Shown here: piece after piece, positions 9,383 to 9,590 of the stretch
Layout of the letters: each line of letters begins with the position of its first letter
Numbering within the stretch: the stretch's first letter is position 1
NCBI RefSeq assembly: GCF_009931435.1
Contig: NZ_CP043414.1
DNA: 64,000 nt
DNA from: Escherichia coli
Lineage (GTDB): Bacteria; Pseudomonadota; Gammaproteobacteria; Enterobacterales; Enterobacteriaceae
Strand: one strand, 5' to 3'
Translations under genes and position numbers: made by a program
Notes under the pieces: generated by a model
What the model was told of the DNA's origin: nothing
Databases searched by the model: none
The model's input: the letters and a program-made list of their open reading frames with translations, nothing else

Positions 9383-9590
9383 CGTCGCATCAGGCGCTGT
9401 TTGTCGGATGCGGCGTGAACGCCTTATCCGACCTACGGTTCGGATTTGTAGTCCTGATAAGACGCGGCAGCGTCGCATCAGGCGATGTTTGTCGGATGCG
9501 GCGTGAACGCCTTATCCGACCTACGGTTCGGGTTTGTAGGCCTGATAAGACGCGGCAGCGTCGCATCAGGCAATGAATGCGAAACCGCGG
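9383..9590. repeat. REP/BIME-type intergenic repeat array, about 2.3 tandem copies of an 88-bp unit
   Basis: The unit cgtcgcatcaggc...gccggatgcggcgtgaacgccttatccgacctacggttcgg recurs at 9383, 9471 and 9559; each unit contains REP-like palindromes. Confidence 0.75.

Follow-up and report, generated by a model that had tools for sequence, protein, structure and literature searches.

REPs are imperfect palindromes of 30 to 40 nt with a GTAG/CTAC foot and at least one mismatch in the stem, and in a BIME-2 they occur as inverse y and z2 REPs that are separated by a short linker and repeated in tandem, the number of copies at one locus differing from strain to strain (Ton-Hoang et al. 2012). The closest described element is REP325, a BIME-2 of six Y-Z2 units in the yjdM-yjdN spacer of Escherichia coli K-12. 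It is the element for which naRNA4 (CssrE), a discrete RNA of about 77 nt that binds HU and condenses the nucleoid, was defined experimentally, and the Rfam model of naRNA4 is one Y-linker-Z2 unit of REP325. For the region studied here, REPs of 34 to 36 bp have been described in the cpsG-cpsB, wcaK-wzxC, wcaA-wzc, hisI-wzz, and yeeZ-hisL spacers, together with REP-containing indels that distinguish strains and the suggestion that recombination junctions fall where REPs are positioned (Iguchi et al. 2011, PLoS One 6:e23250). That study dealt with the same locus and the same phenomenon in a handful of O157-antigen strains, and it contains no BIME-2 typing, no 104+88n length series, and no allele frequencies. 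REP presence and indel polymorphism at cpsB-cpsG are already in the literature, and the element is already known.

Here, we describe the REP array between cpsB and cpsG in a window of E. coli DNA (the whole 64,000-nt stretch that was analyzed, from contig NZ_CP043414.1 of assembly GCF_009931435.1). Judged by its sequence, the array is a BIME-2 composed of two tandem 88-bp Y-Z2 units plus a leftover Z2 half. It belongs to a common class of repeat, and labeling it correctly has little importance beyond bookkeeping; the alleles of the spacer, its occupancy in other genera, and a second conserved element in front of cpsG are described below.

Anatomy and class of the cpsB-cpsG array

Tandem Repeats Finder reported one tandem array at 9383-9575 with a period of 88, 2.2 copies, 96% matches, and no indels, and a repeat search of the window returned two full 88-nt copies (9383-9470 and 9471-9558) that are 97% identical. 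The first-pass annotation had placed three starts of one unit at 9383, 9471, and 9559 within a span of 9383-9590. The repeat itself and all three positions were confirmed; however, the third start opens a partial copy of only 13 nt (9559-9571, CGTCGCATCAGGC), which is the arm of the last Z2 and thus half a palindrome, and the array ends at 9571-9575 rather than at 9590. The cpsB-cpsG spacer (9382-9661, 280 bp) houses the whole array, which begins 1 nt past the cpsB stop codon. Its placement in the colanic acid cluster, as annotated earlier, agrees with the NCBIfam matches of the flanking genes (Table 1), with the cpsB annotation of 7945-9381 in matching genomes, and with the presence of wcaI upstream and wcaJ downstream of the pair. 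A TTG at 9614 was offered as the cpsG start by mechanical ORF listing and was rejected, the true start being the ATG at 9662; the ORFs listed within the array (9415-9576 on the plus strand and 9390-9605 on the minus strand) are likewise mechanical by-products of the repeat and not coding.

Table 1. Coordinates of the array, its flanking genes, and other landmarks in the window
Feature	Position	Strand	Evidence or remark
cpsB/manC, mannose-1-phosphate guanylyltransferase	7945..9381	+	NCBIfam NF012004 equivalog, 1115.6 bits, full length; TAA at 9379-9381
Truncated Z2 REP, 13-nt arm CGTCGCATCAGGC	9383..9395	-	left border of array; three exact copies 88 nt apart
7-nt linker GCTGTTT, joining REP ends without GTAG/CTAC	9396..9402		sequence
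Y-type REP, copy 1, GTCGGATGCGGCGTGAACGCCTTATCCGACCTAC	9403..9436	+	pattern match with 0 mismatches; inverted repeat; hairpin of -18.4 kcal/mol
11-nt linker GGTTCGGATTT, from Y CTAC foot to Z2 GTAG foot	9437..9447		sequence
Z2-type REP, copy 1, minus-strand GCCTGATGCGACGCTGCCGCGTCTTATCAGGACTAC, one change beside the foot	9448..9483	-	pattern match with 1 mismatch; Rfam naRNA4 alignment; hairpin of -17.6 kcal/mol
7-nt linker GATGTTT, second copy	9484..9490		sequence
Y-type REP, copy 2, reads as GTCGGATGCGGCGTGAACGCCTTATCCGACCTAC	9491..9524	+	pattern match with 0 mismatches; inverted repeat
11-nt linker GGTTCGGGTTT, second copy	9525..9535		sequence
Z2-type REP, copy 2, minus-strand GCCTGATGCGACGCTGCCGCGTCTTATCAGGCCTAC	9536..9571	-	right border of array; pattern match with 0 mismatches; inverted repeat; hairpin of -20.5 kcal/mol
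algC RNA motif (Rfam RF02929), conserved cpsG 5' leader	9608..9657	+	77.5 bits vs gathering 33.8, E = 2.7e-17
cpsG/manB, phosphomannomutase	9662..11032	+	NCBIfam NF011943, 1058 bits, full length
JUMPstart element, downstream of galF	20566-20604	+	Rfam gathering-level match
Histidine operon leader	40112-40235	-	Rfam gathering-level match
Enterobacterial sRNA STnc240	42974-43048	+	Rfam gathering-level match
ALIL pseudoknot (Rfam, cis-regulatory)	52182-52298	+	117.8 bits
Group II intron catalytic domain	54825-54911	+	64.9 bits

Each 88-bp unit holds one Y REP on the plus strand and one Z2 REP in the opposite orientation. Read along the plus strand, it consists of the right arm of a Z (13 nt), a 7-nt linker, the Y (34 nt), an 11-nt linker, and the first 23 nt of a Z, and the last 13 nt of each Z REP open the next unit. 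The order of elements in the array is half-Z, Y, Z, Y, Z; Y and Z are oppositely oriented, and the GTAG/CTAC feet of Y and Z2 face each other over the 11-nt linker. Patterns for Y and for Z2 each matched twice in the 64-kb window, always within the array, where 0.00 matches were expected from 100 shuffles. A CRISPR-like array was considered and dismissed, as the array lacks unique spacers and its unit combines two known palindromes.

We assign the array to BIME-2 because every sequence-level feature of the published definition was found in it. There are four palindromes of 34 to 36 nt with an internal mismatch and a plus-strand foot of CTAC (Y) or GTAG (Z2); a 480-nt array query finds the cps locus in thousands of E. 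coli genomes and matches a median of 12 places per genome (range, 2 to 27) in 5425 of 5426 of them; and no part of the array extends beyond the cpsB stop (9381) on one side or the cpsG start (9662) on the other. The REPs alternate with linkers of 7 and 11 nt, and the 2.2 copies present here compare with 0, 1, 2, or 3 units in other E. coli strains. The Z2 copies are identical to the REP325 units at 34 of 36 positions and the Y copies at 27 of 30, Z1 being ruled out through this similarity to a reference Z2 and not by direct comparison with a Z1 consensus. The Rfam naRNA4 model (RF02564) matches 9451-9521 on the minus strand with 70.6 bits (gathering score, 59.5), and the alignment has a 6-nt gap at the linker. 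The genome-wide matches, the comparison with REP325, and this alignment exclude that the palindromes have no relation to the Y/Z2 families of the genome. Pattern matches, inverted repeats, and this alignment together uphold the earlier reading of tandem REP/BIME palindromes, which had been silent on the half-palindromic third copy, the BIME-2 type, and the algC RNA motif at 9608-9657. A BIME-1 likewise has a Y REP and an inverted pairing of two REPs, but it is single-copy, with Z1 and a long IHF-binding L linker, whereas the array is tandem and has Z2 and a 7-nt linker; the IHF consensus WATCAANNNNTTR had no match in the cpsB-cpsG spacer, and BIME-1 with its IHF site was ruled out on these grounds. 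The RefSeq record of K-12 lists no REP features even at REP325, and missing annotation is thus uninformative.

The comparison with REP325 is close. Both elements combine a Y with a 36-nt Z2 in alternating orientation, with GTAG/CTAC feet and units joined head to tail, and both are extragenic within a transcription unit and variable in copy number between strains; the array has two units where REP325 has six. The linkers, at 7 and 11 nt, are both shorter than those of REP325 (12 and 17 nt), which accounts for a period of 88 bp in place of 100 bp. The Z2 of REP325 is GCCTGATGCGACGCTTGCGCGTCTTATCAGGCCTAC, from which the Z2 here differs at two loop positions only. In the Y, a paired stem change has turned GCCGG...CCGGC into GTCGG...CCGAC, a compensated, locus-specific replacement of C:G by T:A, and one loop base also differs. 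Unlike REP325, the array has as its left border a truncated Z2 that abuts the cpsB stop.

Alleles of the spacer within E. coli and beyond

Among representative alleles that were read, the length of the cpsB-cpsG spacer follows the series 104+88n bp (104, 192, 280, and 368). K-12 derivatives have the 104-bp form (n=0), in which the 13-nt arm at 9383..9395 is the only REP piece left; O157:H7 has 192 bp (n=1), as do BL21 and Nissle in unit number; the window has 280 bp (n=2); and strain E-93 has 368 bp (n=3). The suspicion of the first-pass annotation that copy number differs between strains was therefore well founded, with 0 full units in K-12, 1 in O157:H7, 2 here, and 3 in E-93. Outside the series are a 101-bp REP-free allele (read as sequence in AH21H025 and matched by O55:H7 DEC5B in its locus span of 301 nt), a 128-bp allele that retains the half-Z and a solo Y, and a 155-bp allele (strain E69) with half a Y plus Z2, left by a deletion between ACGTC and ACGCC. 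At least seven alleles thus occur in natural isolates: n=0 to 3, REP-free, solo-Y, and half-Y plus Z2. The 7-nt linker also varies among alleles (GCTGTTT, GATGTTT, GCTGATT, GCTGGTT, GCTGGCT, and GCAGTTT).

Allele frequencies were taken from two systematic samples of a set of 5,426 complete E. coli genomes. The first, 60 rows drawn systematically from 4,668 genomes that match K-12-type flanks, contained 10 alleles with n=0, 35 with n=1, 3 with n=2, 4 with n=3, 6 REP-free alleles, and 2 others; the second, 34 informative rows obtained with the 480-nt query, contained 6, 18, 5, and 1 with n=0 to 3 and 4 REP-free alleles. Pooled over 92 informative rows, the frequencies are about 17% for n=0, 58% for n=1, 9% for n=2, 5% for n=3, and 11% for the REP-free 101-bp form. 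At about 9%, the two-unit allele of the window is a minority form. Clones keep a constant number, with n=1 in all O157:H7 rows and n=0 in all K-12 derivatives, and from this stability the array does not look like a fast-switching contingency locus. The 104+88n series provides a simple strain marker near the recombination hot spot of the O-antigen region.

The stem variant GTCGGATG...CATCCGAC, in place of GCCGGATG...CATCCGGC, is shared by every Y of the window, of the E. coli alleles that were read, and of E. whittamii, whereas the BIME in the adjacent wzxC-wcaK spacer of strain CD45 has the consensus form of Y; the units at cpsB-cpsG therefore stem from in-place amplification of a single founder. 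Changes in copy number would then result from recombination or slippage of the direct repeats by whole units, possibly aided by the REP-associated transposase TnpA-REP, and further alleles arose by smaller internal deletions at microhomologies.

The surroundings of the array have a mixed ancestry. Strains CD45, 67-1, and TW11681 match the O-antigen region of the window (20300-40000) at 100% identity, but CD45 has n=1 at cpsB-cpsG, a cpsG-wcaJ spacer of 54 bp (135 in the window), and, at the wzxC-wcaK spacer, which lacks BIME units in the window, about three of them. The cpsB-cpsG spacer is 100% identical to strain S1, which elsewhere is 95.9 to 98.1% identical by BLAST, has a different O-antigen cluster, and shows a REP-sized gap against the window at wzxC-wcaK. 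The window is a mosaic, consistent with recombination around the O-antigen locus, and the matching of spacer and O-antigen region to different strains fits the picture of REPs and recombination junctions drawn by Iguchi et al. (2011).

Other spacers and landmarks of the window were also noted. The wzxC-wcaK spacer (14044-14114) is short and REP-free; in CD45 (13760-14050 of its locus) it contains the roughly three BIME units, of consensus Y plus Z2 with a period of about 90 bp, and this difference is the same polymorphism that Iguchi et al. (2011) described. The cpsG-wcaJ spacer (11033-11167) is 135 bp both here and in S1 and 54 bp in K-12 as well as in CD45. Its extra sequence contains a GC-rich imperfect palindrome (...CCCCCTCGCCCCTTTGGGGAGAGGGCCGGGGTGAGGGG...) that resembles the BoxC repeat. 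In E. coli genomes the core of this palindrome has a median of 2 matches and a maximum of 6, and the full insert is present in 514 of 5426 genomes. The JUMPstart element, the his leader, and STnc240 are expected landmarks of the wca-galF-O-antigen-his region. The ALIL pseudoknot, whose family is the frameshift signal of IS3-family insertion sequences, lies 2.5 kb from the group II intron match, and the two suggest mobile elements inserted beyond the his operon.

To follow the spacer beyond E. coli, we used an invariant 18-mer of the cpsG leader as an anchor, which found 12 enterobacterial loci, with Salmonella not among them, and the orthologous manC-manB spacer was read in 11 enterobacterial genomes. 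E. whittamii has the same two-unit array. One Y-like REP is present in Citrobacter sp. FP75, a foot-to-foot REP pair in Lelliottia, one inverted REP in Enterobacteriaceae bacterium 89, and one REP of another class in Trabulsiella guamensis and in one T. odontotermitis strain; a second T. odontotermitis strain is without the REP (spacer of 97 versus 137 bp), a parallel, in another type of REP, to the polymorphism of E. coli. C. werkmanii retains a single GCCTGATGCG REP remnant, and in Citrobacter sp. On2M such a remnant is preceded, after the manC stop, by a heptanucleotide microsatellite of about five GCCTGAT copies, which occupies the position of the C. werkmanii remnant and looks like an expansion of a REP arm fragment. 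The Yokenella spacer contained no REP. Several genera, each with its own flavor of REP, have in common the right border ...GGC AATGAAT/AATGCAT. As REP palindromes follow the manC stop across genera, occupancy of this spacer would be either old or recurrent. Among the results, it is the only mildly unexpected one.

Possible effects on the cps transcript

The array lies inside a single run of same-strand genes. Neither terminator-like sites nor a promoter consensus were found on either strand in 8800-10200, and the REP hairpins are followed by GGTTCGG or AATGAATG, with no T-run; an intrinsic terminator and a sigma-70 promoter were accordingly rejected as explanations. As RNA, the 296-nt spacer folds at -130.8 kcal/mol, compared with -99.3 +/- 4.9 kcal/mol for shuffled sequences (z = -6.4), while the K-12 spacer has no such structure (-7.9 kcal/mol).

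According to published summaries (including Ton-Hoang et al. 2012), REPs stabilize upstream mRNA by blocking 3'-to-5' exonucleases, and BIMEs can attenuate transcription. The tentative role named by the first-pass annotation, an mRNA stabilizer or attenuator, agrees with this behavior of the family. The array would be transcribed within the cps mRNA, where, by analogy, its four hairpins (-18 to -20 kcal/mol each) would most probably impede 3'-to-5' exonucleases and weakly attenuate transcription and thereby modestly raise the ratio of upstream message (through cpsB) to downstream message (cpsG, wcaJ, and beyond). A BIME-2 amplified in place, with hairpins that would favor the cpsB-side message, is as a whole probably the best explanation of the locus; a stabilizing or attenuating effect large enough to measure at this particular site falls somewhat short of probable. 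If the array behaves like its family, strains with n>=1 should have an excess of cpsB-side over cpsG-side message relative to K-12. K-12 data are unusable for inferring how cps transcripts behave in array-bearing strains. The array is not needed to keep the operon, since K-12 (n=0) and the roughly 11% of sampled genomes that are REP-free keep it intact; any effect is nonessential and could be nil. The O-antigen manC-manB pair of strain S1 (36108-38933 of its locus) has its genes 3 nt apart, with neither a REP nor an algC leader. The two enzymes therefore have no general need of an intercistronic element, and the spacer architecture is specific to the colanic acid copy.

That the array has no measurable effect at all, being a selfish or hitch-hiking repeat whose copy number drifts and recombines in a nonessential spacer, is a reading that we take seriously and still find rather doubtful. 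The coexistence of at least seven alleles in natural isolates, the mosaic window in which the O-antigen region matches CD45 (n=1) and the spacer matches S1, and the gain and loss of repeats in neighboring spacers are what would be expected of such a repeat, and the title of Bachellier et al. (Genetics 1997) presents BIMEs as a major source of intergenic polymorphism. Against drift speak REP hairpins elsewhere, which alter mRNA fate, and the REP palindromes that occupy this position, immediately past the manC stop codon, in Citrobacter, Lelliottia, Trabulsiella, an Enterobacteriaceae species, and E. whittamii, a cross-genus occupancy that hints at persistence or repeated targeting more than at pure drift. 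Taken further, the occupancy of the manC-manB spacer may have been selected rather than accidental, and the series of 0 to 3 units could be a heritable dial of ManC:ManB, which, if true, would set the supply of GDP-mannose and GDP-fucose and the output of colanic acid; we hold this to be very improbable. A role at the level of DNA, as a strong gyrase site that removes positive supercoils from an operon of about 20 kb under strong induction, also appears unlikely. The element conforms to the BIME-2 definition, and a subset of the BIME-2 elements of K-12 is enriched for gyrase cleavage sites, chiefly in the Y REPs and irrespective of transcription (Sutormin et al. 2019), but the restriction to a subset counts against any given element, the mapped strain K-12 has no unit at cpsB-cpsG, and the linkers are shorter than those of REP325.

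Two further readings place the action in RNA. Structure directly after the stop codon could stall the terminating ribosome, trigger mRNA cleavage, and so lower CpsB translation, an effect that, according to a summary of their work, Liang et al. (2015) reported when a REP lay no more than 15 nt from a stop codon. The TAA and the start of the repeat are 1 nt apart, and the half-Z2 arm is predicted to pair with the left arm of the first Y at -28.7 kcal/mol (9374-9424), enclosing the stop codon. However, the first canonical REP hairpin, that of the same Y, begins at 9403, 21 nt past the stop and beyond the 15-nt limit, and the predicted pairing competes with this hairpin and would be opened by the ribosome itself, which leaves the proposal distinctly improbable. 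The array could also be a source of an naRNA4-like, HU-binding nucleoid-associated RNA, given that naRNA4 is one Y-Z2 unit of the BIME-2 REP325 and that the RF02564 match exceeds its gathering score. The naRNA4 antisense together with HU also condensed DNA in vitro, so that structure and not sequence matters for naRNA4. Nevertheless, the above-threshold match is antisense to the operon, the mRNA-sense strand reaching only 43.1 bits, no promoter consensus accompanies it on either strand, and the match is explained by the Rfam model being itself a BIME-2 unit; we regard this origin as extremely unlikely.

The algC leader and REP-bearing operons elsewhere

The spacer contains a separate element, the algC RNA motif, which starts 36 nt past the array and ends 4 nt before the cpsG ATG. 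The match covers model positions 1 to 52 of 52 and lies above the gathering score of the covariance model upstream of a phosphomannomutase gene, which makes it a full-length, high-scoring member of the RF02929 family. Its 3' half is the 18-mer TTGCCTGAAAAAGGGTAA, which overlaps the Shine-Dalgarno region of cpsG and is invariant in six other groups (Citrobacter, Trabulsiella, Lelliottia, Yokenella, Phytobacter, and an Enterobacteriaceae species). In the minimum-free-energy fold, UUGCCU pairs with GGGUAA, which would form a hairpin of 6 bp. The motif also has a small hairpin that shows covariation among genera. The name algC is absent from the main text of a survey of candidate structured RNAs published in 2017, and the analysis turned up no ligand or mechanism for the motif. 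If anything in the spacer exerts specific control over cpsG, the leader is a stronger candidate than the repeat, and studies of cpsG expression should consider this conserved leader and not the repeat alone.

The exonuclease-barrier mechanism that we propose is borrowed from the malE-malF, hisJ-hisQ, and gdhA 3' REP cases, in which REP hairpins likewise stand just after the upstream cistron of a polycistronic mRNA. Those cases are backed by experimental deletion data, whereas the mechanism at cpsB-cpsG is a proposal. Unlike in malE-malF, hisJ-hisQ, and gdhA, the downstream gene at this locus has a conserved leader of its own, the algC motif.
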